From positions 1 through 25,990 of IMG/VR virus record IMGVR_UViG_3300032330_001895: a stretch of 25,990 nucleotides of DNA. The stretch is one strand, 5' to 3'. The stretch comes from a virus. Taxonomy: Duplodnaviria > Caudoviricetes. How positions within the stretch are numbered: the stretch's first letter is position 1; every line of letters starts with the position of its first letter. Below, piece after piece: positions 6,333-23,560 of the stretch. The notes below the pieces were generated by a model. It made no database searches. It worked only from the letters and a program-made list of their open reading frames with translations, and was not told where the DNA came from. Made by a program: the position numbers and the translations under genes.

Positions 6333-7868
6333 ATGAAAAAGATTGAAGAAAAAATCAATCTGATTAACGAACAACTTTTAAAGGAGGAGTACCAGACAAA
6401 CAAAAAGTTCATTTTATCAGAAATGAAACGTATAGGTATTGAAGAATTACCTTACTCATATTCTGCTTTAAAAAACTTTATTGATTCAGAAACGATGTCT
6501 ACCCATTATAATAAACATTACAAAGGGTATGTTAAAAAATTAAACAAGGCACTTTCTCAAAAGGACTACGGAGATTTAGAGTTAGAAGAAATCATTAAAT
6601 CAATTAGTAAGTACGACGAAACTATACGAAATAATGCGGGTGGAGCTTTCAATCATGCATTATTTTGGAAAATGTTGTCACCTAAAAAACAAAAAATACA
6701 AGGTGATATTTTAGAAAAAATTAAGAAGGATTTTGGAAGTTATAGAGAATTTAAAACTATTTTTGAAGAATTTGCTCAAGAAAGATTTGGTTCAGGATGG
6801 GTGTGGTTGATACTAACAAAAGGTGATAAACTAAAAGTTATGTCAACACCAAACCAAGATAACCCACTCATGAATGTTGTTAAAAATGGTGGTTATCCTA
6901 TATTGGGTTTAGACCTTTGGGAACACGCTTATTATTTAAAATACAAAAACGAAAAAAACAATTACATCAAAAATTTTTGGGACAGTGTCAATTGGCAGTT
7001 TGTCAACAAAATGTTAAAAATGAAAATGAAGACAAAGTTAACTGAATCTATTTTTTCAAAAAATCTTCTTACTGAGTCAAAATCAACATCTTGCACTTAT
7101 GAGATGGCTCAGACATATAGATTTATATTCAACATCAATGATGAAGTGAAGAAAATATTCATGTACAGTATTAATGATGTTTTGAAAAATGTTTTTCCTG
7201 ATAATTTCTATAGATACAATGAATATGAGAAAGGTCAGATGTCAGGAATTTATGATTTGGAAAGAAAAGGTAGGTCAGTAATTAATAGACTTAATACAAA
7301 CTATTATGGTTTTTGTATTCTTGTTAATGATTTAAATAAATTGTTAAAATCACAAAACCAACCTGTTTTAGATTTTGTTGGTAAAACACCACAAGAACAA
7401 ATAGATGAAGTTAAAAGAATGACTTCATTAATTGAGAGGTATGGTTCAAGAATTTTTAATCAAGAATCTGACACTTTTAAAAACATAATGGAAATTCTTG
7501 ATGTGAAAGACAAACAGGGTAATAAAACCGAAGATTTAACAGTAAAAATTCTAAAGAAAAAATTTGGAGATGAGAATGTTACAAGAATTGGAGAACTTGG
7601 AAGTGAATTAGATATGGTTAAAGGTATTGACTGTATTATCAAAGATAAAGGGAGAGAATACACCGCACAAATCAAACCTTATTCAAACATTTCAGAATCT
7701 GAAAATGAAATAACTATTTTAAATTCAGGTCAAGTTAAGAAATATAGTACGGACTGGATAATATTCAGTAAGGGGACAACTATTTTAGTATTTGAAAATT
7801 CAGGAACAAAAATAGTGGACGGTAACTTCGTATTTCCACAAGATAGTTTAATTTATACACTATCTTAA
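6333..7868 (+). CDS. Fe/Mn superoxide dismutase (Mn-type signature) fused to a C-terminal PD-(D/E)XK-like nuclease domain
   Basis: SOD spans about aa 35-228: LPY, H58 (THYNKH), H108 (NNAGGAFNHALFW), FGSGWVWL, TPNQDNP, D194/H198 (DLWEHAYY). The roughly 280-aa C-terminal extension has E400, D433 (GIDC) and Q446-x-K448. The SOD call is firm; the nuclease call is moderate. Confidence 0.88.
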   Translation: MKKIEEKINLINEQLLKEEYQTNKKFILSEMKRIGIEELPYSYSALKNFIDSETMSTHYNKHYKGYVKKLNKALSQKDYGDLELEEIIKSISKYDETIRNNAGGAFNHALFWKMLSPKKQKIQGDILEKIKKDFGSYREFKTIFEEFAQERFGSGWVWLILTKGDKLKVMSTPNQDNPLMNVVKNGGYPILGLDLWEHAYYLKYKNEKNNYIKNFWDSVNWQFVNKMLKMKMKTKLTESIFSKNLLTESKSTSCTYEMAQTYRFIFNINDEVKKIFMYSINDVLKNVFPDNFYRYNEYEKGQMSGIYDLERKGRSVINRLNTNYYGFCILVNDLNKLLKSQNQPVLDFVGKTPQEQIDEVKRMTSLIERYGSRIFNQESDTFKNIMEILDVKDKQGNKTEDLTVKILKKKFGDENVTRIGELGSELDMVKGIDCIIKDKGREYTAQIKPYSNISESENEITILNSGQVKKYSTDWIIFSKGTTILVFENSGTKIVDGNFVFPQDSLIYTLS

Positions 7869-9367: not shown

Positions 9368-9400
9368 AAAAAGGAATATGTATTTTTAACATATTCCTTT
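9366..9400. terminator. Intrinsic terminator hairpin between convergent genes
   Basis: 12-bp perfect inverted repeat AAAGGAATATGT (9370-9381) / ACATATTCCTTT (9389-9400) with a 7-nt loop. The A-run on its left gives a U-tract on the minus strand. Confidence 0.75.
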
Positions 9401-10070
9401 ATAGAATTTTTTTACCCTTACTTAAATTTTCTGAAGCCCATAATGGTTGTAAATTACTATAATGACACAACTTATTAAATTCTTCAGTAGTTTTGGCTGA
9501 TGATAATGGAATTATATGGTCAATATGCCAACTACCATAATTATCCCAAGACATTCCATCTTTAAATTGTGATTGTAAATGTTCTTTTAAAAACTGAGGT
9601 GAACAACCAATCAAATCAAATGTCTTATTAGTTTTAGACCAATTTTTTATTTTTAAGAAATTTCTAATTCTAGCCCTAATTAACGATGATATTTTATATA
9701 ATTCATCATTATTGATTTTTTTTCTTTGGTATTCAGTCCTTTTTTCCCTATTTATAACTCTATACAATTTGAGTTTTTCTTTATGTTTTTCTTTATTTTT
9801 ATGGTAAGATTTTAACTTTATAAGTTTGTTTTTTTCTATATCTAATAAAACCCTAATTTTTGTTTTTTCATTAATTTTTTCTTTATTATTTTGATAATAT
9901 TTTTTTATAGTTTCTTGTCTTTTTTCCGTATTTTTTTCTTTATACTCTCTACTTTCAATTTTTCTACAATCATTACATGTTGAACGGTACCCACTTTTAG
10001 ATTGTTTATTTTTACCAAAAAAACAAATGTCCTTGTTAATTTTACATTTACCGCAAACTTTAGTTTCCAT
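9399..10070 (-). CDS. HNH (homing-type) endonuclease with an N-terminal Cys4 Zn finger and a Lys/Glu-rich helical linker
   Basis: Likely start METKVCGKC...CNDC (ATG at 10070; the track starts at GTG 10079). C-terminal WHIDHIIPLS...CHYSNLQPLWASENLSKG is the HNH core. Confidence 0.88.
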   Translation of the reverse strand: METKVCGKCKINKDICFFGKNKQSKSGYRSTCNDCRKIESREYKEKNTEKRQETIKKYYQNNKEKINEKTKIRVLLDIEKNKLIKLKSYHKNKEKHKEKLKLYRVINREKRTEYQRKKINNDELYKISSLIRARIRNFLKIKNWSKTNKTFDLIGCSPQFLKEHLQSQFKDGMSWDNYGSWHIDHIIPLSSAKTTEEFNKLCHYSNLQPLWASENLSKGKKIL

Positions 10071-10206
10071 AATAATCACGAATTAATTTTTCAATGAATC
10101 GGGAAACCATAAATCCATCTTTTTTAATAGTTTCGTAAAGTTTTCTGTCTAAACTAATTCCAAATTTTATTTTTTTATCAATATCATTTTTTTTTGGTCT
10201 TCCCAT
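10060..10206 (-). CDS. Small RHH-type regulator, 48 aa (not in the ORF track), overlapping the HNH start
   Basis: MGRPKKNDIDKKIKFGISLDRKLYETIKKDGFMVSRFIEKLIRDYYGN*. GRPK N-terminus, strand KFGISLD, and a SRFIEKLI helix. Confidence 0.75.
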   Translation of the reverse strand: MGRPKKNDIDKKIKFGISLDRKLYETIKKDGFMVSRFIEKLIRDYYGN

Positions 10207-13274: not shown

Positions 13275-13868
13275 TTAATTATATACTCTGATTTCTATTG
13301 GGGTGTTTAATAACACATCATCGGTAATTATATGTCCTAAACCATCAGGACTAAATGAACTTATGTATAATGAAGCGTTATCATATGTTCTACCTTCTAT
13401 TATAAAAGGTGATGATGCATCAGGAATTATATTTGATATAAAAAAGGCAGTTTTATTAACTGTCAATAATCCATTTGTTAAAATCTCATAAGTCCCAATA
13501 CTATTATAAGTAAACCAAACATTACCAATAGTATTCTCTAGTACAGTTACTACTGGGGCTCCTGTGTTGTATGCTAAAGTATTATTACCTATTGTTTGTG
13601 TGCCCCAATTATTAGGAGTTACTCCCGTTGCTACAAATTTAGTCCCTGGAACATTATTAGGAGCACCAACATTTGTAAAATCCCACCCATTAAAAGGTTC
13701 ATCTAACAACTCATAGGTTACACCTACTGTCAATAAACCCTCACTAATATATTGCAAATCATCCCCACCACTCTGTGTTAATAGGGCAGTGTATACTTTA
13801 TATGGTTGTAATTGTTGACCATTAATGGTTTGTCCCGATACGTTATTTACGATATATTTTGTTGCCAT
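13275..13868 (-). CDS. Hypothetical virion / fibre-associated protein
   Basis: 197 aa, T/G/N-rich; YKVYTALLTQSG...APVVTVLENTIG...IEIRVYN resembles phage fibre C-terminal modules. Confidence 0.6.
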   Translation of the reverse strand: MATKYIVNNVSGQTINGQQLQPYKVYTALLTQSGGDDLQYISEGLLTVGVTYELLDEPFNGWDFTNVGAPNNVPGTKFVATGVTPNNWGTQTIGNNTLAYNTGAPVVTVLENTIGNVWFTYNSIGTYEILTNGLLTVNKTAFFISNIIPDASSPFIIEGRTYDNASLYISSFSPDGLGHIITDDVLLNTPIEIRVYN

Positions 13869-13888: not shown

Positions 13889-14965
13889 TTAGTCAATTGG
13901 TAATCCTAACTTATAATCTGATGTAATATCAACCCAACCCCCAACAAATTCGTATTTCATAACTTTATCAACAACAACGTATGATTCAAATTGTGTTGTA
14001 CCTGTACTAACATCACTATTAATGAAAATACCACTTAAAAAATATACATCATTTGTGGTGTTTCCTGTTGTTGCTGCTGGTAAATTATCAATGATATAAT
14101 CATAGGCAGAATCTCTAATAGTTTCTGTGGCATAAATCATTTGTTTATTGTAAATCTCTTCAGTGGTTCCTGTGAATCCTGATAATGTTGCTTTATGTGG
14201 CCATAAAATATCTGTTAATTTCCAAAAAGAATAATTTTCATTATTAAAAGGTGCATTATTTTGATTTGGAGCCGCACTTAGTTGATTTACAACTTGGTCA
14301 ATTGCCCCCGCAACGGCACCACAGGTATTATCAGTTAAACTGTTTGCTTTACCTCTTCTTAACATTCTACCTGAACGTCCATCTTCAGTCACACCAATGT
14401 GTGGCATACTTGTAACAAACAAGGTTCCGTCAAGAGTTGTTGCTACGTGACTTGAGAACGCTCCAAATCCAACACTACCCACAAATGGATAACCTGCTAA
14501 ACCACCAGACATGAACGGACCTAAGAAAGAATTAATACTTGTTGGCCATCCACCGATATTTCCAGGTAAGTATGCTGCGTCAACGTCATCAGAACAAATA
14601 CCTTCAGCTAAAACAATATCCGTTGATGGTATTCCTTCATCTGTAATATATTGTGTTGTGTATGTTCCCCATACTTCAGATAATACCGCTCCTGAGAATG
14701 GTTGGTATCCTCCGTCAACGGTAACACCTCTTACTGTTTCAGTATATGCACTCTGACCTGTTAATGGTGCTGGTACAATTATTTCATACGTCCTATCATA
14801 TGATGGTACCTCTAATTCGTATGTTCCGTAGGGATAATCCGAAATATTGTTAAATGGTATTACTTCAGACCCTAAATCAATGGTTCCACCAGTTGTTGGT
14901 AAAAAAGTAACATTTGCTGTAAGTCCTGACAGATTTGTACTTGTTATTCTAATTCCTTGTATCAT
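13889..14965 (-). CDS. LCIB/LCIC-family (theta / beta-fold) carbonic anhydrase-like protein with an N-terminal beta-sandwich-like extension
   Basis: C124-S-D126-D, GPF.SGGLAGYPFVG.VGFGAFSSH, P-H189-IGVTEDGRSG...RRG, T-C215-GA. These are the Cys/His/Cys Zn ligands and the Gly-rich motif of LCIB-type CAs. Confidence 0.82.
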   Translation of the reverse strand: MIQGIRITSTNLSGLTANVTFLPTTGGTIDLGSEVIPFNNISDYPYGTYELEVPSYDRTYEIIVPAPLTGQSAYTETVRGVTVDGGYQPFSGAVLSEVWGTYTTQYITDEGIPSTDIVLAEGICSDDVDAAYLPGNIGGWPTSINSFLGPFMSGGLAGYPFVGSVGFGAFSSHVATTLDGTLFVTSMPHIGVTEDGRSGRMLRRGKANSLTDNTCGAVAGAIDQVVNQLSAAPNQNNAPFNNENYSFWKLTDILWPHKATLSGFTGTTEEIYNKQMIYATETIRDSAYDYIIDNLPAATTGNTTNDVYFLSGIFINSDVSTGTTQFESYVVVDKVMKYEFVGGWVDITSDYKLGLPID

Positions 14966-14983: not shown

Positions 14984-15655
14984 TTATTTTAATTCAAATA
15001 GGATTATTTCCGATTCTTTTTTTGTTGTTATTACAATTTTATCTTCACTAATAAAACTTAAACCATCACCTTCAATCAACGAATGATTATTTATATTCGC
15101 CTCACCTAAAACAACATATAGATAATATCTAAGTGTGTTATTAAGTTCAAATGTGAAATCTTCAGTAAATATTCCTGATAATAGTCTGGCGTCTTGTTTT
15201 ATTGGTAATTTTTCAGTTATATCACAAAATTTGTTTAATTTATCTTCTCTTGTAAATTGGTACCATTCGTGTATTGGTTCTGTATCAAACACATTTGGTT
15301 TAATCCATAATTGTAAATAACGATTTGGAGTGTCCGAAGCGTTACCTTCTGTATGTTTTATTCCTTGTCCCGCACTCATTCTTTGTACTGCACCTGCTGG
15401 TATATCCAATACCTTTCCGTGACTATCAGTATGTCTACAAACTCCTTCTACCACATAACCAAATATTTCCATATTTTTGTGCTCGTGTATTGGTACATGT
15501 CCACCAGGTTGAACTCTATCATCATTAATGGTTTGTAGGTCACTAAAATTCATATACTTGGGGTCAAAGTAACCTGGAAAACTAAATGTCCTGTATGAAC
15601 TAATCCAATCAGCTCTAGGGTTACCCCTTGTGTTATGTGGTCTTTTTATTATCAT
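14984..15655 (-). CDS. Pirin-family bicupin (YhhW-like)
   Basis: TFSF..YFDP..M.F..L..INDD, H-E-H-KNMEI, H.DS.G, VQRMSAGQGI-K-H-T-E, LQLWI.P; the His/His/His/Glu metal ligands are present. Confidence 0.93.
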   Translation of the reverse strand: MIIKRPHNTRGNPRADWISSYRTFSFPGYFDPKYMNFSDLQTINDDRVQPGGHVPIHEHKNMEIFGYVVEGVCRHTDSHGKVLDIPAGAVQRMSAGQGIKHTEGNASDTPNRYLQLWIKPNVFDTEPIHEWYQFTREDKLNKFCDITEKLPIKQDARLLSGIFTEDFTFELNNTLRYYLYVVLGEANINNHSLIEGDGLSFISEDKIVITTKKESEIILFELK

Positions 15656-15680: not shown

Positions 15681-17612
15681 TTATAATATTAATCCAAAAT
15701 TCAAATCATTTTCTGGTATGTCTAATGCATTTAACCCCCCTAAACAAGGTGCTTCAGTTAATGTTTCTATTGTTAAAATATCAGATTCATCGTAATACGA
15801 TAATCTATTATCTCCATTTTTATTTTTAAATACATTAACTGTTGTTATATCATATAACATACCTGTACTTAAACAAGTACTATTAATACTTGTGTTAATA
15901 ATATTCCATTGGAAATAATTATCTATTGTATTATTTCCAAAATTATCGGAAATAGTATTGTTATAGAAATATTCACCAATAGTGTTATTCTGAAAATAAT
16001 TACCTATGATATTACCTTGTGGTGCAGATGCTCCATAACCAAAATTTTCACCTATTGTGTTATTTTGAAAATTATAACCGATATTATTAAATCCAAAATT
16101 ATCACCAATAGTATTTGAGACCACACTACCTTTAAATGTGTTTCCAAAAACATTACCCAAAAAGTCATTACTATCAATATTGGGTCCAAAGGTATTCCCA
16201 TTACAAGACCCACTAATTTGATTTCCTACAAATCCCCAATCTAATTTATTAGTATTAAAACTCTGATATATTATATTACCCCTAAATTCGTTGAATATTT
16301 GGTTATCGTAAAACAACTCATATATTGTATTATTTTCAAATTGTTCTCCGATTGTATTTTTATAAAATTGTTGACCAATTGTATTGTTATTGAAATATCT
16401 ATTAACTTGATTATCGTTAAAATTCCCAATTATGATGTTACCATAAAAATTATTTTCAATTGTATTGTTATAGAAATTATAATTGGTAAAATAATTATAC
16501 TGAAAATTTGTTCCTATTTGGTTATCGTAAAATGATGAACTAATTCTATTATAATTAAAATTAGACCCTATATTATTATTATAAAAACCATTTTCAAATA
16601 TGTTATTATAGAATGATGGTCCAACTAAATTATTGTAAGCTCCGTTATTTATTGAATTATTAAAAGTTCCATAACCAAATTTGTTATTGTTATTATTTAA
16701 TAAAAATACATTATTTGATAAAATGAAATAAACTTCATACAAATAATTAGAAAAATTATCAATATAGTTGTTTAAATTGACACCTTCACCATTAAATGTA
16801 TAATACTCCTCATAATCTGTTGTGGATATATTATTTTGTTTATAACTTGTATAGTTTCTTGTATTTGTAGGGTATATTTTTACTTGATATTGTTCTATTA
16901 AAGTTAAACCTGTAATAGTCATTTCTGTGTCACTAACAATGTTTGTAATCTCATAAACCTTATAGTCGTTATCTATAAATCCAACATATTGACCAACAGA
17001 AAATGATTCAAATGACGTACTACTACCTGACACTAACATTTCCTGACCTGTAGCCGTTGAAACAATAACGGTTCCGTTATGCGGATTTCCTAAATCAAGT
17101 TCAATAAAACGGTATCTTTTAAATTGAATTGTTCTATGGTCATAATCCGTTCTATTTCCAAACTCATCAATTCTTTCTGAAATTCTACCATAAGCAACTC
17201 CTTGTGTTACCTCAGTAGCACTAAAAGTCCAATCATATTGGATTCTATCTTTAGGGTATGATGGTTGATATGCGGTTGTACTAATTGTATCTAAACCTGT
17301 TGCTAACACTATAATTGGGTCAACTGAAGTTTCTTTATAATTACCTGTAAGGATTGCGTTATTGTTGTAATCATAATCAGGTTGGTCATAACAAGTTTGG
17401 AAATCGGTTATTAAATAAAATTGACCCGATGTTAAAGTTTCGCCAGTTATTTTATCAACAAGTTCAGAGTAAGTTACTTCAATAAGACCACTTATATTTG
17501 ATGTGATAGCAGATATTGCTCCATGATAGGTTACCCCACCATCTACGAATGGAAAAATACTTGATGAATTTGGTAAACCTATTGGTAATTGTGAAATTTT
17601 TACGTAAGCCAT
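15681..17612 (-). CDS. Putative tail fibre / receptor-binding protein with an Asn-rich beta-solenoid
   Basis: N-terminal VKISQLP; TYSEL...LTSGQFYLITDFQT and RIDEFGNRTDYD.R.I.FKRY fibre-type motifs; many roughly 10-aa F.NN.IG.N repeats. Confidence 0.7.
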   Translation of the reverse strand: MAYVKISQLPIGLPNSSSIFPFVDGGVTYHGAISAITSNISGLIEVTYSELVDKITGETLTSGQFYLITDFQTCYDQPDYDYNNNAILTGNYKETSVDPIIVLATGLDTISTTAYQPSYPKDRIQYDWTFSATEVTQGVAYGRISERIDEFGNRTDYDHRTIQFKRYRFIELDLGNPHNGTVIVSTATGQEMLVSGSSTSFESFSVGQYVGFIDNDYKVYEITNIVSDTEMTITGLTLIEQYQVKIYPTNTRNYTSYKQNNISTTDYEEYYTFNGEGVNLNNYIDNFSNYLYEVYFILSNNVFLLNNNNNKFGYGTFNNSINNGAYNNLVGPSFYNNIFENGFYNNNIGSNFNYNRISSSFYDNQIGTNFQYNYFTNYNFYNNTIENNFYGNIIIGNFNDNQVNRYFNNNTIGQQFYKNTIGEQFENNTIYELFYDNQIFNEFRGNIIYQSFNTNKLDWGFVGNQISGSCNGNTFGPNIDSNDFLGNVFGNTFKGSVVSNTIGDNFGFNNIGYNFQNNTIGENFGYGASAPQGNIIGNYFQNNTIGEYFYNNTISDNFGNNTIDNYFQWNIINTSINSTCLSTGMLYDITTVNVFKNKNGDNRLSYYDESDILTIETLTEAPCLGGLNALDIPENDLNFGLIL

Positions 17613-17626
17613 TTTTAATTTTATTT

Positions 17627-17633
17627 ATAAATA
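17627..17633 (-). promoter_or_regulatory. TATTTAT putative late promoter motif heading the fibre-pirin-CA run
   Basis: ATAAATA on + strand, 14 nt upstream of the ATG at 17612. Confidence 0.55.
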
Positions 17634-17662: not shown

Positions 17663-18358
17663 CTATATAATTGTTGATGAAGGTGTAGGTGTTGGTGTAA
17701 TACAAGGATTGATTTCTGATACTATAAAATCACCATTTTCAGTTAAAATATAATCCCCAAATTCGTCTGTAATGAATTCAACACATGGATTAGTCGGTGT
17801 AGGTGTTGGAGTTGGTGTAATACAAGGATTAATTTCCGATATTAAAAAATCACCATTTTCAGTTAAAATATAATTACCAAATTCATCAGTAATAAATTGA
17901 ACACATGGGTTAGTTGGTGTGGGTGTTGGAGTTGGTATTAAATTATCACAACAAGGAAAATCAATAACATAATTAGAATCATATGTTAAATAATCAGCAA
18001 TAAAACTTTCAGTAACATTGATAAATAATTTTTCTCTGATTGGAACAATTAAAACACCATCATAATTACTTATCGTAAATTGACCCTCAAATCTACCTAT
18101 ATTATTTGTATCTCTATGTTTAAATTGATAATATATGTAATATTCAGGTTCTAAATTTACATCGGTAACTTCTTTTAATATAAACCCTGATGGAGAAGAT
18201 AATATTTTAGGGACACCACTCTCAACGTCAACCATAGAAAAGAAGATATCCGACGACTCTATTGATTTCATAAAGTTATCGTAATCAATTCTACCATCTT
18301 TAACCACTTGTAATTTTAACAGTGGTAACGTGGCGTTCTTTTTAATGAAAAATTCCAT
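17663..18358 (-). CDS. Putative virion protein: BppU-like N-terminal domain plus (TP)n linkers and duplicated ILTENGD modules
   Basis: MEFFIKKNATLPLLK...YYIYYQF...DT...GRFEGQF...P domain, paralogous to 18900..19277; three PTPTPT tracts. Confidence 0.65.
   Translation of the reverse strand: MEFFIKKNATLPLLKLQVVKDGRIDYDNFMKSIESSDIFFSMVDVESGVPKILSSPSGFILKEVTDVNLEPEYYIYYQFKHRDTNNIGRFEGQFTISNYDGVLIVPIREKLFINVTESFIADYLTYDSNYVIDFPCCDNLIPTPTPTPTNPCVQFITDEFGNYILTENGDFLISEINPCITPTPTPTPTNPCVEFITDEFGDYILTENGDFIVSEINPCITPTPTPSSTII
17691..17936. repeat. 120-nt (40-aa) tandem duplication inside the CDS
   Basis: 17691-17810 matches 17811-17930, encoding NPCV(Q/E)FITDEFG(N/D)YILTENGDF..SEINPCITPTPTP; many differences are synonymous. 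Confidence 0.92.
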
Positions 18359-18899: not shown

Positions 18900-19277
18900 T
18901 TATGGTAAACTATCTCCAATGTAACTTTCGGATACGTTAATAAATAATTTCTCCCTAATCGGTAAAATTAAAACTCCATCATTATTTTTTAACATAAATT
19001 GACCTTCGTATCTACCGACTACGTTAGTGTCAAAATTTGCAAATTGGTAATAAATATAATATTCAGGGTCAGCGTCGGGATTAACCAATATTTTCTCAAC
19101 AAAGCCAGCCGGCTTAGTTAGTATTTTTTCAATACCCGTTTCAATATTCACCATAGAAAAGTACAAAGAAGAAACCTCAACCATTTCCATGAAATGACTA
19201 TAGTCACTTCTTCCGTCTTTAACTACTTGCATTTTTAAAAGAGGAAGTGTGGCGTTTTTTTTAATAAAAAATTCCAT
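18900..19277 (-). CDS. Stand-alone BppU-like domain protein, paralog of 17663..18358
   Basis: Shares MEFFIKKNATLPLLK, QVVKDGR, PEYYIYYQF, GR.EGQF and PIREKLFINV.ES with its paralog. Confidence 0.7.
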   Translation of the reverse strand: MEFFIKKNATLPLLKMQVVKDGRSDYSHFMEMVEVSSLYFSMVNIETGIEKILTKPAGFVEKILVNPDADPEYYIYYQFANFDTNVVGRYEGQFMLKNNDGVLILPIREKLFINVSESYIGDSLP

Positions 19278-19323: not shown

Positions 19324-20988
19324 TTAACTTTCTTTTCTTAAATTACCATCATAATGTTCAAATCGGTCATGCTCTGTTGGGGTTAGTAGGAGTAACCCTG
19401 ATTTAATATTTTTTTTCTTTGTTTCTTGGAACATATAGCTCATCCACGTCTGCTCAAAAGGTCTATCCCACTTTGTGGTTAAAAACATTTTCTTATTACC
19501 TACTTTTGAAACTACTTGAGGCCAATTACAATAAAATACCTCACCTAAAGCATATGGAACACCACCATAGGATTTAATTGCGTTAAATTCAGTTCTTGGA
19601 GCATCAGGGTCTAAACCCATTTGTGGTAATTTAGGTTTGTTTGACCAATACTCTTCTCTTATATTTTGCGGCACATTGTACCATGACCACTGAGTTGAAT
19701 TATCACCATAGAATTCAGTAAAATTAAGTTTAATAAAATCTAAATTTTCTGAACTTATTATATATAAACTTTTGTCATATAAACTTTTAACTCTTCGGTT
19801 AAATCCATTTCTACATGTTTCATCACTACCTCCATAAAAAAACATATCGTCCTCAAAAAATAACATATAATCTAAATCTTGAGAATCAAAATGTTCTGCA
19901 ATCCATTGTCTTCCACCACATATCCCTAAATTATCCATCTTAATATGCTCAAATCCATGTTTCTCACAGATTTCTTCATATTTGTTTGTTGTAGATAAAT
20001 CACTTGAATTATTTAACAGAAATTTTCTTGGTTGAGTTAAGAATCGGTTATCATAACTCTCCATTGACATTATCAATTTTTCAAACTGATTTGGACTATT
20101 AAATGTTAAAACATACAAACCAACTTTATTAGTGTCTAAATTAGTTGTTTGTAACATTTTTGTTTTTTTAACGGTTTTACCATCTTTTAAATCTTCAAAA
20201 AATTTAAATAGTAATCCATTATCATCAATCTCAAAGTAATCAATTAAATTAGGATATTTGTAAATCATAATACTGAATAAACTTTCTTCAGTTCCCATTA
20301 ATTTTTTATTAAGGGTTTCAATTAATAATGAATAATACAAATTATTTATATTACTTATAGATTCTTTTGGTCCACCAAAGAATCCGCCTCTACCCACAAT
20401 ATCAACATTACCACCAGCATATTCACAAATTTCATTAAATTTAAATCCGTGAATTTCTGAATTAGTTTTATACGGAAAAACAATAAATGTAAATTTATTT
20501 ATTTGTTTTTCTAATTTTTCTAAAACATTATCCTTTGTAAAATAACCAACATTTACAGTATTAGTTAATCCTGCGTCAATCCAAAACATATATTCTGAAT
20601 TAAATTTATCCAAGATTTTTGCATCATGTAAAATGAATACTTTGGACATAACCAAAGGATTATACATTTCTAACTTTGCTTGTGTGGAATCAACTAACCA
20701 TCCCGTTTGATTAAACCATTCAGGGTTAGTTCTTATTGACTGAATCTTTGAATAGTATTCATTATTTTTAAACCAAGATAAATCTCTTAATATAAATTGA
20801 GTATTATCTGATGTTCTTCTTTCCCAAACAAATTTTTCTAATTCACTATCTCCAAAAATTATTAAATTTTCTTCAACACGAAGAAGTTCCTCAAATTTAT
20901 TTAAGTAGTGTTGAAATGAACGTGACCATCCTTCAGATAAATCACCTCTTCCAATATCCCATAATCCTGTTACTAAAGTTATTGACAT
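19324..20988 (-). CDS. Two-domain glycosyltransferase: HtrL/YibB(WlaTC)-like N-domain plus a GT-A (GT2-like) C-domain
   Basis: N-domain: TLVTGLWDIGR, K..L, YMFWIDAG, GGFFGG, GTEE. C-domain: GLYVLTFNSP, LLNNSS, NLGICGGRQ, MLFFEDD. Confidence 0.78.
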   Translation of the reverse strand: MSITLVTGLWDIGRGDLSEGWSRSFQHYLNKFEELLRVEENLIIFGDSELEKFVWERRTSDNTQFILRDLSWFKNNEYYSKIQSIRTNPEWFNQTGWLVDSTQAKLEMYNPLVMSKVFILHDAKILDKFNSEYMFWIDAGLTNTVNVGYFTKDNVLEKLEKQINKFTFIVFPYKTNSEIHGFKFNEICEYAGGNVDIVGRGGFFGGPKESISNINNLYYSLLIETLNKKLMGTEESLFSIMIYKYPNLIDYFEIDDNGLLFKFFEDLKDGKTVKKTKMLQTTNLDTNKVGLYVLTFNSPNQFEKLIMSMESYDNRFLTQPRKFLLNNSSDLSTTNKYEEICEKHGFEHIKMDNLGICGGRQWIAEHFDSQDLDYMLFFEDDMFFYGGSDETCRNGFNRRVKSLYDKSLYIISSENLDFIKLNFTEFYGDNSTQWSWYNVPQNIREEYWSNKPKLPQMGLDPDAPRTEFNAIKSYGGVPYALGEVFYCNWPQVVSKVGNKKMFLTTKWDRPFEQTWMSYMFQETKKKNIKSGLLLLTPTEHDRFEHYDGNLRKES

Positions 20989-20990
20989 AG

Positions 20991-21599
20991 TTATACTTTT
21001 TTCTTACAAACCCAAACAACTTGTTTGAATTCTTCTGACATATAAGGTTGCAAATTATTTTCAATACAAGAATTATTAATATCCGAATCTTGTATTTCTA
21101 ACCAATTCCAAACTTTATTATTTATATGCTCATTAAAATAATTTTCATTGGGGGAATAATCGTGAGCCATAATTATATCACCCTCTTTTAATAATTTTGA
21201 TAGAATTCTGAATTCATTTTTTTTACTTCCACCATCACAAAGCACTATTGTGGTACCATCTCTCTGTATATAAGAAGATATTTCTTCTACTTCAACTAAT
21301 TCAGTATAAGAATGATTAAAAACATCTTTGATTATGATTTCAATATTTGCACCACTTTCAACATGTGAATTTAAATAGTGTTTTTCAATTACGTCATAAG
21401 TTCTAAGAGTCGTATCATTTAAAGTTAAATCGTTTAAAATATCTCTTAACATTAAAGTTAAACCACCAGACGCAGTTCCAATCTCTAAAACTTGTTTAGG
21501 TTTAGTATTTTCAAATAATTCTTTAAAGACACCTCCAACATCTTCATGTTGTTGTGCCACAATATTTTGGTAAACAAACCATCCTGTAACGTTTTTCAT
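20991..21599 (-). CDS. Class I SAM-dependent methyltransferase (Methyltransf_24/CmcI-like)
   Basis: VLEIGTASGG motif I, TYD, LCDGG.K..E, LKEGDIIMAHDY. Confidence 0.82.
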   Translation of the reverse strand: MKNVTGWFVYQNIVAQQHEDVGGVFKELFENTKPKQVLEIGTASGGLTLMLRDILNDLTLNDTTLRTYDVIEKHYLNSHVESGANIEIIIKDVFNHSYTELVEVEEISSYIQRDGTTIVLCDGGSKKNEFRILSKLLKEGDIIMAHDYSPNENYFNEHINNKVWNWLEIQDSDINNSCIENNLQPYMSEEFKQVVWVCKKKV

Positions 21600-21609
21600 A
21601 TTTGTTGTA

Positions 21610-22311
21610 TTATAAATTAGGGTGTGAATTTTTTATATATTCCTCATAGTTAACATTCATATTCCATAAATCACTAAATGATGCATATTGAGTTGATAAC
21701 GGTTTTAAATAACATAATGATATAAAATTAGTTGGTAACACATTTATTGGATTATCTAATTCATAAAAATTTACTGAATTTGGATTATTCACAACATCAT
21801 TACCATAAATTGATAAACATAATAACTCATCAATTAAAATACTACTTTGAACATTTAATGGGAAATTTTTTAAAATGTATTCACATAAATTTCTTTTAAT
21901 CAAATATGACTGAGAGTGAGAAACCGAACTAACTTTAAAAGTATTGTTTTTATATGGTACAGGACTTCTCCTGTTACGACAACCAAGCCAAAATAAATCC
22001 CATTCAGTGGAATATATGTCTTTGAAAATAGTTTCGTATTCATCTTTTAGAACATCTAAAAATTTACAATCATCCTCAAGAACCAATAATACTTCACTAT
22101 CAGAATCTAAGAATTTCTTATATAATTCATAATGACTACTTCTACAATTGAGGGGTCCTGAATTTAAATTAGATATTGCTGAGAATCGTTCAACCCCTTC
22201 AATATTAAAACTTTTTAATTGATTAGTTAAAATTTCTAATCTATCAGTTCTTTTATCTAAATTAATAAAGTAACCAACATCGGCAATTTTAATGTCATTT
22301 ATTTTTACCAT
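21610..22311 (-). CDS. GT25-like glycosyltransferase
   Basis: YFINLDKRTDR, ERFSAI, C..SH, LVLEDD, WDLFWLG, SYLI. Confidence 0.85.
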   Translation of the reverse strand: MVKINDIKIADVGYFINLDKRTDRLEILTNQLKSFNIEGVERFSAISNLNSGPLNCRSSHYELYKKFLDSDSEVLLVLEDDCKFLDVLKDEYETIFKDIYSTEWDLFWLGCRNRRSPVPYKNNTFKVSSVSHSQSYLIKRNLCEYILKNFPLNVQSSILIDELLCLSIYGNDVVNNPNSVNFYELDNPINVLPTNFISLCYLKPLSTQYASFSDLWNMNVNYEEYIKNSHPNL

Positions 22312-22315
22312 ATCA

Positions 22316-23560
22316 TTATAAATTACCTGTTATTCTATCACACCACCCTTTAGATTTTGAGTGAGGCCAAACGACCCAATACTTTGGTTTATCCACTGTT
22401 TGGAACTGTCTCCAAATCTTACAATAATTGTCAGGGTCGGTTTTCATTCTATTAATCTCATTAATGTCAGCATCTTGTCGGTTTAATGTTATATCGTTTT
22501 CACCATGAAATGCTACCACCCAAAAGTCATAATCAGTTTCAGGTACTTGACCAAATGATAAATCAATACAGTGTTTAAAAATTGATGAGAATGAATTCAA
22601 CCACTCTTCTTCAGTTTCAAATGTATATGGATTTGGTGGATATTGTTTGTCTATTGTATATTGTTGAACACCTCTTTTTGAGAAAAGAATACCTGCGTAT
22701 TGTTCATAATCTCTTAAAGTTCTAACTGTACCAAATCCATATTGACTTTCGTTGATAGGTGTTTCACCATCCATACCAAATAGTTGTCTGTTTTTCTTAT
22801 GTGAAGAAGTATTTTTTAAATGCCATTCTTTGTCATCATCCCATTGTTTGGTTCTTCCTTTTCTTGTGTATTCATGCCAAATTAAAACTTTATGAGGATG
22901 GAATAAATCATATCCGTGAGTATAAGCTCTTGCGGCAATTGATATCTCTTCACCATGAAAATAAAACTCAGGGTCATGTTGAACTTCTTTTGAGAATTCA
23001 CCTAATGTGAAACAAAAATGTGCGGAATAAAATCTTGAGGTAACAGGTTTAGTCATTTCTCTCCATCCTGGTATTGTTTCGGGTAAAAAGAAAACAGCTC
23101 CTTCAGGAATAAATCTGTCAAACGACATTCTCCATGGCTCTCTTACTCTACCTTGTGGGTCATTATCAGGGTCAAAAGAAGATACATATCCTGTTAATAA
23201 TGGTTTATCATAACCATCTTTTTGTAACTCTTTTATCATATCAATCATCTCAACATCCCAATCTTGTTCAAATCTCATGTGAGAGTCAATTTGAAGGGTG
23301 TATTCTTCACCTTGATATAATTGTTGTACTTGGTGTCTTGCCCAACATACTCCTTTTGATTCGTTATATAGAACGTTTACAACTCTGAATCTTTCATCGT
23401 TCTCATAATCACTTAAATCATCAAACGTGTCATCAGGACTATATTGTCTACAAATACCTAATCTTAGATTTTCAGGAAACTTTGCTTTTGAAATCATATC
23501 CTCAATAGTTGGTATTAATTGAGGGTCTCTATATGATGCGATTTGAACAAATATTTTCAT
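22316..23560 (-). CDS. GT60-family polypeptide alpha-GlcNAc transferase-like protein (Skp1-Hyp GlcNAcT / Gnt2 family) with a C-terminal extension
   Basis: IFVQIASYRDP, GVCWAR, LQIDSHMRF (DSH), LLTGY, SAHFCF, DP..YFHGEE...AARAYTHGYDLFHP...WHEY. Confidence 0.87.
   Translation of the reverse strand: MKIFVQIASYRDPQLIPTIEDMISKAKFPENLRLGICRQYSPDDTFDDLSDYENDERFRVVNVLYNESKGVCWARHQVQQLYQGEEYTLQIDSHMRFEQDWDVEMIDMIKELQKDGYDKPLLTGYVSSFDPDNDPQGRVREPWRMSFDRFIPEGAVFFLPETIPGWREMTKPVTSRFYSAHFCFTLGEFSKEVQHDPEFYFHGEEISIAARAYTHGYDLFHPHKVLIWHEYTRKGRTKQWDDDKEWHLKNTSSHKKNRQLFGMDGETPINESQYGFGTVRTLRDYEQYAGILFSKRGVQQYTIDKQYPPNPYTFETEEEWLNSFSSIFKHCIDLSFGQVPETDYDFWVVAFHGENDITLNRQDADINEINRMKTDPDNYCKIWRQFQTVDKPKYWVVWPHSKSKGWCDRITGNL

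Follow-up and report, generated by a model that had tools for sequence, protein, structure and literature searches.

The window, a stretch of 25,990 nt that is the whole of a 26-kb virus record, encodes proteins assigned by Pfam and PHROGs as an SNF2 helicase, an SOD, a head-tail adaptor, a family B polymerase, a pirin and glycosyltransferases, together with an 830-aa ORF, open at its 3′ end, that was read as a tail sheath from its similarity to proteins labelled sheath by PHROGs. The gene under study occupies 13889..14965 on the minus strand and encodes a 358-aa protein with a carbonic anhydrase (CA) domain; the plus-strand frame is full of stops. Homologues of this protein number 362, and the best 120 of the 362 are 340-362 aa long and 78-96% identical. 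Related loci share the gene order glycosyltransferases, fibre-like gene, CA, polymerase, adaptor, SOD and SNF2. The features of the locus are as follows.

17626..17633, minus strand: TATTTATA, putative late-promoter motif preceding the run of fibre-like, pirin and CA genes
15681..17612, minus strand: fibre-like repeat protein, 643 aa, the usual upstream neighbour within the close CA clade (no library match)
14984..15655, minus strand: pirin, an occasional insert (Pfam)
13889..14965, minus strand: CA protein, consisting of N-terminal handle, linker and LCIB/theta-CA domain (ORF, Pfam, homologues)
14765..14965, minus strand: phage N-terminal module (the handle), aa 1-67 (profile search)
13970..14656, minus strand: LCIB_C_CA Pfam match (PF18599), aa 104-332
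14588..14596, minus strand: C124-S125-D126, predicted first zinc ligand and catalytic Asp (alignment)
14447..14449, minus strand: H173, the second His, aligned with the His mutated in PtLCIB4 H88A (5b5z)
14399..14401, minus strand: H189, predicted zinc ligand (alignment)
14357..14359, minus strand: R203, invariant Arg, followed by Arg or Lys at position 204 (alignment)
14321..14323, minus strand: C215, predicted zinc ligand (alignment)
14171..14182, minus strand: S-G-x-T, aa 262-265 of the CA protein; a second copy is at aa 13-16
13275..13868, minus strand: 197-aa Lys-poor, Thr/Ser/Gly-rich protein, 20 nt downstream of the CA and a frequent downstream neighbour

The fibre-like gene and pirin are separated by 25 nt and pirin and the CA by 18 nt, and the motif lies just upstream of the 643-aa gene, all as the original prediction had described from a TATTTAT element. 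That prediction also placed the CA in a late fibre operon. The 643-aa protein had no Pfam or PHROG match, so its 'fibre' label denotes composition and repeats only, and pirin, present in 3 of 61 clustered sequences, was rejected as a fixed partner of the CA.

Several other genes were recorded around these. The SOD gene (6333..7868, plus strand) encodes an Fe/Mn SOD fused to a C-terminal domain of ~280 aa without assignment, a fusion protein that is possibly packaged in the particle. Two minus-strand genes, at 17663..18358 and 18900..19277, are paralogues of one ~125-aa domain with no library match, the longer of which adds Pro/Thr sequence and repeated short motifs. A GT60/GT25/HtrL-YibB glycosyltransferase cluster occupies 19324-23560, and what we take, from a C-terminal motif, to be an HNH-like endonuclease gene (9399..10079, minus strand) sits between the polymerase and convergent genes and occurs in 8 of 61 sequences. 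In 21 loci (for example L002 9080-9955) the CA is followed by genes for 82 and 210 aa that are absent from the window and have no Pfam or PHROG match; the 210-aa product presumably resembles a 2-oxoglutarate/Fe oxygenase.

Assignment of the protein to the LCIB/theta carbonic anhydrases, as originally proposed, was borne out by profile and structure searches. The match to LCIB_C_CA (PF18599) had an E value of 5e-29 and a score of 101.6 bits against a cut-off of 25, and covered profile positions 12-216 of 223; comparison with bacterial homologues placed the start of the domain near aa 90, giving a domain of about aa 90-335. A sequence search of the PDB with the CA protein returned 6kfs, 5b5y and 9vzj first. 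An AlphaFold model built from 35 sequences had a mean pLDDT of 62 and a pTM of 0.67, with aa 1-44 poor and aa 125-174 below 50, and Foldseek found eight matches to it at E≤0.001, all of them LCIB/LCIC (best 5b5y, E 1.5e-10, target TM 0.76), with canonical beta-CAs coming next at E≥0.016. The residues named beforehand (C124, D126, H189, R203-R204 and C215) lie where they had been placed, the first two within C124-S-D126-D and with H173 in addition, and the acidic, Thr/Gly-rich composition reported for the protein was likewise confirmed (pI 4.2, Thr 11.5%, Gly 10.9%, Lys 2.0%). C124, D126, H173, H189, R203 and C215 are invariant in all 53 aligned rows, 18 from phages and 35 from bacteria, and S125 aligns with S47 of PtLCIB4, the site of S47R in 5b60. 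By profile, modelled fold and aligned residues, aa ~90-335 are assigned to the LCIB family, and family knowledge makes it probable that the domain binds zinc, forms a dimer and hydrates CO2.

A zinc motif does not guarantee that an LCIB protein is active when purified, and for Chlamydomonas LCIB/LCIC, which were inactive as purified, a non-catalytic barrier has been proposed (PMC5876011, accessible text). The phage domain might likewise be a catalytically dead fold retained as a structural spacer or oligomerisation domain. Against this, motif searches found the Cys-His-Cys ligands, the Asp, the Arg and the second His in every one of 223 distinct phage sequences drawn from three phage lineages, the patterns carrying no position anchor and four misses of two patterns retaining the His/Arg on inspection. 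Purifying selection is also strongest on the active-site core, with dN/dS over 22 close-relative pairs of 0.09 for aa 120-220, 0.16 for the CA domain and 0.16 for the handle. Since all catalytic residues are kept, the scaffold reading is weakened, and we consider it highly improbable.

The first residues of the protein had been called a structural-type domain, and when this region (aa 1-70) was searched against other phage proteins the description held: a profile of the handle (aa 1-68) matched nine ORFs without a CA among the first 60 loci and, library-wide, 391 clusters at E≤0.001. Handle genes number up to six per genome and occur also in five records without the CA. Among the matches listed, the handle begins within the first 13 residues in 150 of 150 clusters, of which 79 have Pro/Thr repeats and 4 a CA. 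A Pfam scan of the 102 handle proteins of ~200 aa or longer gave matches for nine (LamG and DUF285 twice each, DUF5122, Fib_succ_major and LCIB, besides weak matches to peptidase C1 and arabinofuranosidase) and none for the other 93. The handle is found nearly alone in proteins of 69-91 aa (L169 1486-1695, L165 1501-1776 and L025 12498-12725), and it has no match in the PDB, PHROG, BFVD or Atlas. These sequence comparisons indicate a module common to Pro/Thr-stalk, lectin-like and repeat proteins, one that would act as a docking-type module with swappable heads.

The same CA clade is also found on other carriers. In L052 (7674-10004), L053 (7653-9983) and L062 the domain lies, without the handle, inside a conserved ~500-aa protein, where it is inserted in an S-G-x-T-G loop and, in L052 and L053, flanked by two cysteines. 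Among 59 scorable copies of this protein the loop is 12 aa long in 58 and 288 aa in one, and a search for longer forms found only three clusters, of 775-776 aa, all with the CA insert; the C-terminal part in L063 is 96% identical and has no insert. The late motif precedes the ~500-aa protein in 40 of 40 upstream regions. The protein has no PHROG, Pfam or PDB identity, and its model is poor (pLDDT 38), with a structure match only for a C-terminal beta-sandwich (best Z 9.2, rmsd 3.1, 94 residues aligned); a resemblance to CBM96 (14% of one cluster) is a lead. Its neighbours were considered as a baseplate module, which was not confirmed, the baseplate genes of the related genome G016 lying elsewhere.

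Searching with the inserted CA domain revealed further N-terminal carriers. All 8 loci of a second myovirus lineage have the CA ahead of the tail sheath at a distance of three genes or fewer, and the module on the CA of L318 and L319 recurs in a neighbouring 307-aa protein (E 3e-29). In a crAss-related lineage, whose capsid protein is 23-29% identical to those of named crAss-like and Cellulophaga phages, 24 of 30 loci have the CA within the block of capsid genes and 6 have it elsewhere; in L341/L342 the module of the CA also heads neighbouring proteins, one of them with Fib_succ_major, and in five other crAss-related records that module is on no second gene. The first Cys of the phage sequences is at residue 74 or beyond (median residue 44 in a comparison set of 47 bacterial proteins), and a bare CA was found in 0 of 223. 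A FastTree tree joins the phage CAs in a single clade with support of 1.0 on a long branch; an earlier division into handle and insert forms as the only two clades was dropped after this tree.

Timing of expression was approached through the promoter motif. Within the window alone its enrichment is marginal (12 occurrences against 7.4 expected, reached by 3 of 100 shuffles). Across relatives TATTTAT sorts sharply by gene class, occurring within 60 nt upstream of the adaptor in 24 of 24 cases, the fibre-like gene in 15 of 15, SOD in 8 of 8 and, directly, the CA in 16 of 30, as against 1 of 28 for polB, 0 of 5 for SNF2 and 0 of 21 for HtrL/YibB. The CA gene of the window is coupled behind the putative late motif rather than placed directly under it. 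A sigma-70 promoter scan gave results at chance level. The motif therefore suggests, as a putative promoter, that the CA is expressed late, and since it also precedes SOD in 8 of 8 cases, late does not equate with structural.

A second signal is the tetrapeptide S-G-x-T, which is enriched 6-14-fold over shuffles in the fibre-like proteins, the ~500-aa protein, the handle and the CA domain, although the shuffle test overstates significance because the sequences counted are related. The CA domain has 67 copies against 10.7 expected, at seven different positions across CA subclades, whereas bacterial LCIB is at chance (3 against 2.7 expected) and polB, SNF2 and SOD have none. Across the G016 genome (L300-L317), 25 Lys-poor, Thr/Ser/Gly-rich ORFs hold 83 copies against 16.9 expected, the same letters in other orders occurring 8-23 times in the same 25, and the CA ranks third of 334 ORFs by S-G-x-T density. 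CA domains from the two further phage lineages show no enrichment (0 against 1.1 and 4 against 3.8), which fits a lineage-specific mark gained by the enzyme. With the glycosyltransferase cluster at 19324-23560 also in view, S-G-x-T may be a candidate virion glycosylation signal.

These observations bear on whether the protein might instead be an intracellular auxiliary metabolic enzyme, supplying bicarbonate late in infection to host carboxylases, with the handle only oligomerising it or tethering it to the site of assembly. In Prolixibacteraceae the LCIB gene lies directly downstream of PEP carboxylase in both loci checked (L214 and L183), which fits bicarbonate supply in cells; the bacterial LCIB matches are mostly from Bacteroidota or Balneolota; SOD is likewise under the late motif; and phage beta-class CAs from a Metania sponge virome have been called auxiliary genes (bioRxiv 10.64898/2026.01.21.700432, accessible text). 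Such a role sits poorly with a CA that is never bare, that is inserted in a loop of a conserved late protein and whose Lys-poor, Thr/Ser/Gly-rich composition resembles that of the fibre-like proteins and departs from that of bacterial LCIB. Nor was a carboxylase found in the 132 G016 proteins scanned, the ~200 other ORFs being small or of structural type. The absence of bare forms, the late-type context and the lack of a carboxylase among those 132 proteins weaken the plain auxiliary-metabolic-gene reading, which we judge decidedly unlikely.

The bacterial sample came from a degenerate motif scan of GTDB, in which 88 of 120 motif loci held homologues; searching GTDB with the phage alignment turned up no relative. 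Because the motif scan sees exact-motif homologues only, its sample is biased, and no donor lineage was identifiable among the bacterial LCIB homologues found. Balneolaceae copies adjoin hisI and a MerC-like gene, and one Chloroflexota copy adjoins a SulP transporter. The phage clade is ~30% identical to any bacterial LCIB found and has phage-only insertions, and this divergence, with the long branch, would suit a displayed protein whose zinc site serves another substrate, such as a host-sugar ester or COS, or grips an anionic ligand. Carriers shared with LamG, DUF285, DUF5122 and Fib_succ_major heads point the same way, as do the promiscuous esterase activity described for CAs (PMC6776030, accessible text) and the small gain that a few copies would draw from CO2 hydration. 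However, the 18 phage rows all retain every residue that never varies in bacterial LCIB, among them the GGLAG-x-PF loop, H173 and R203, and an unchanged pocket counts against a new substrate, which should alter it. No alternative substrate was indicated by any analysis, and we hold a displayed protein with another job for its zinc site to be unlikely.

The virus itself was placed through its relatives. Ribosomal protein bS21 was found in 18 of 26 records searched, in 6 of 6 that were at least 90% complete and in 7 of 11 CA carriers, all of these counts referring to relatives since the 26-kb record of the window ends short of the bS21 region. Core proteins of the window are 61-84% identical to their G016 counterparts, and this identity, with bS21 in the relatives, would place the phage among the bS21 phages, whose predicted hosts are freshwater Bacteroidetes (Chen et al. 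2022, PMC9723584, accessible text). By this kinship the host is probably a member of the Bacteroidota. The CA gene is optional, being present in 0 of 15 records chosen through a core gene, five of them complete. It is also mobile, as discordant identities to the window show: in L010 the CA is 89% and the polymerase 42% identical, and in L029 the values are 54% and 66%.

Three possibilities had been left side by side by the original prediction, and of these virion display gained support and the auxiliary-metabolic and non-catalytic structural readings lost ground. The late-type context, the re-fusion to other carriers, the absence of bare forms and the gain of S-G-x-T make it likely that the protein is displayed on the virion through its handle. 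The combined reading, that an active LCIB carbonic anhydrase is synthesised late and carried on the virion surface, is the one we lean towards, with somewhat better than even confidence. On this proposal an LCIB domain whose zinc-site sequence is complete, joined in one polypeptide to a phage docking module, would be expressed late, to judge by the putative promoter motif; the handle would attach it to the virion exterior as one of several swappable surface heads, and the domain would act there, as a dimer with zinc, as a zinc-hydroxide CO2/bicarbonate hydratase. The weakest step is purpose. A CA alters rates and not equilibria and so acts only where CO2 and bicarbonate are imbalanced; a particle adrift in water already at equilibrium would have no benefit from it, so that the likeliest role would be very-short-range catalysis where the two are out of equilibrium, candidate sites being the surface of a respiring host or an algal or detrital particle.

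A bolder version of the displayed enzyme would have unrelated phage lineages trading a CA cassette whose active, virion-borne product serves as a metabolic sensor head: the CO2 that a respiring cell gives off, or that an alga draws down, would be converted by the CA to a local signal of protons or bicarbonate, from which the virion would read the metabolic state of its target. Assuming a kcat/Km of 1e7-1e8, an imbalance of 10 uM and a radius of 50 nm, the estimated shift in surface pH is ≤0.07 for 6 copies and, for 300 copies, ≤0.02 if buffers keep up and 0.04-1.0 otherwise. A sensing or local-pH role would thus need a capsid-wide coat; in this estimate a local pH effect is negligible at few copies and plausible given hundreds of copies and weak local buffering. 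We regard the sensor version as unlikely.

Known phage-surface enzymes mostly cut host polymers. If the displayed-enzyme reading is right, a CO2-handling zinc enzyme on the virion would be a new use of the algal CO2-concentrating family, one that passes between myovirus and crAss-related lineages with its docking module swapped, and it would caution against tallying such genes as 'carbon-fixation auxiliary genes'. First tests would be cheap, the CA domain being small, a standard assay existing and relatives with and without the domain being at hand. Searches of 50,697 annotated phage records, PHROGs and BFVD gave no match to the CA, and no isolate carrying it was present among the annotated phage records searched. 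No phage or viral LCIB was found in the literature within a coverage that excluded most subscription papers and bioRxiv supplements; the accessible text of the moraphage paper does not mention phage LCIB, and 'LCIB' and 'PF18599' have 0 occurrences in the main text, as distinct from the supplements, of bioRxiv 10.64898/2026.01.21.700432. The phage CA thus belongs to a known enzyme family in a new and probably virion-borne form.

Comparison with known systems bears on both the phage and the enzyme. Like the bS21 phages, the relatives of the window encode bS21 on the reverse strand near the portal and prohead protease, have records of ~300 kb and a contractile tail; unlike the CA-carrying relatives, the bS21 phages are described without a carbonic anhydrase or LCIB in the accessible text and two supplements of PMC9723584. 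The beta-CAs of the Metania virome are, as in the phage studied here, phage-encoded with a conserved active site, but in the accessible text of that preprint they belong to the canonical beta class (IPR036874), are near bacterial MAG enzymes and are not fused to structural modules. Bacterial LCIB proteins from Prolixibacteraceae, Balneolaceae, Planctomycetota and Chloroflexota share the same invariant residues, the best matches being ~29-35% identical, yet they are stand-alone proteins of ~230 aa without S-G-x-T enrichment. With PtLCIB4 of Phaeodactylum tricornutum (5b5y/5b5z/5b60), 6kfs and 9vzj the phage CA shares the fold and the Cys-x-Asp/His/Cys motif, and with PtLCIB4 also the GGLAG-x-PF loop, the His mutated in 5b5z and the conserved Arg. 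It differs from PtLCIB4 in being only ~20% identical by structural alignment, in having phage-only insertions and no chloroplast or CO2-concentrating context, and in being encoded by a phage and fused to a docking module.
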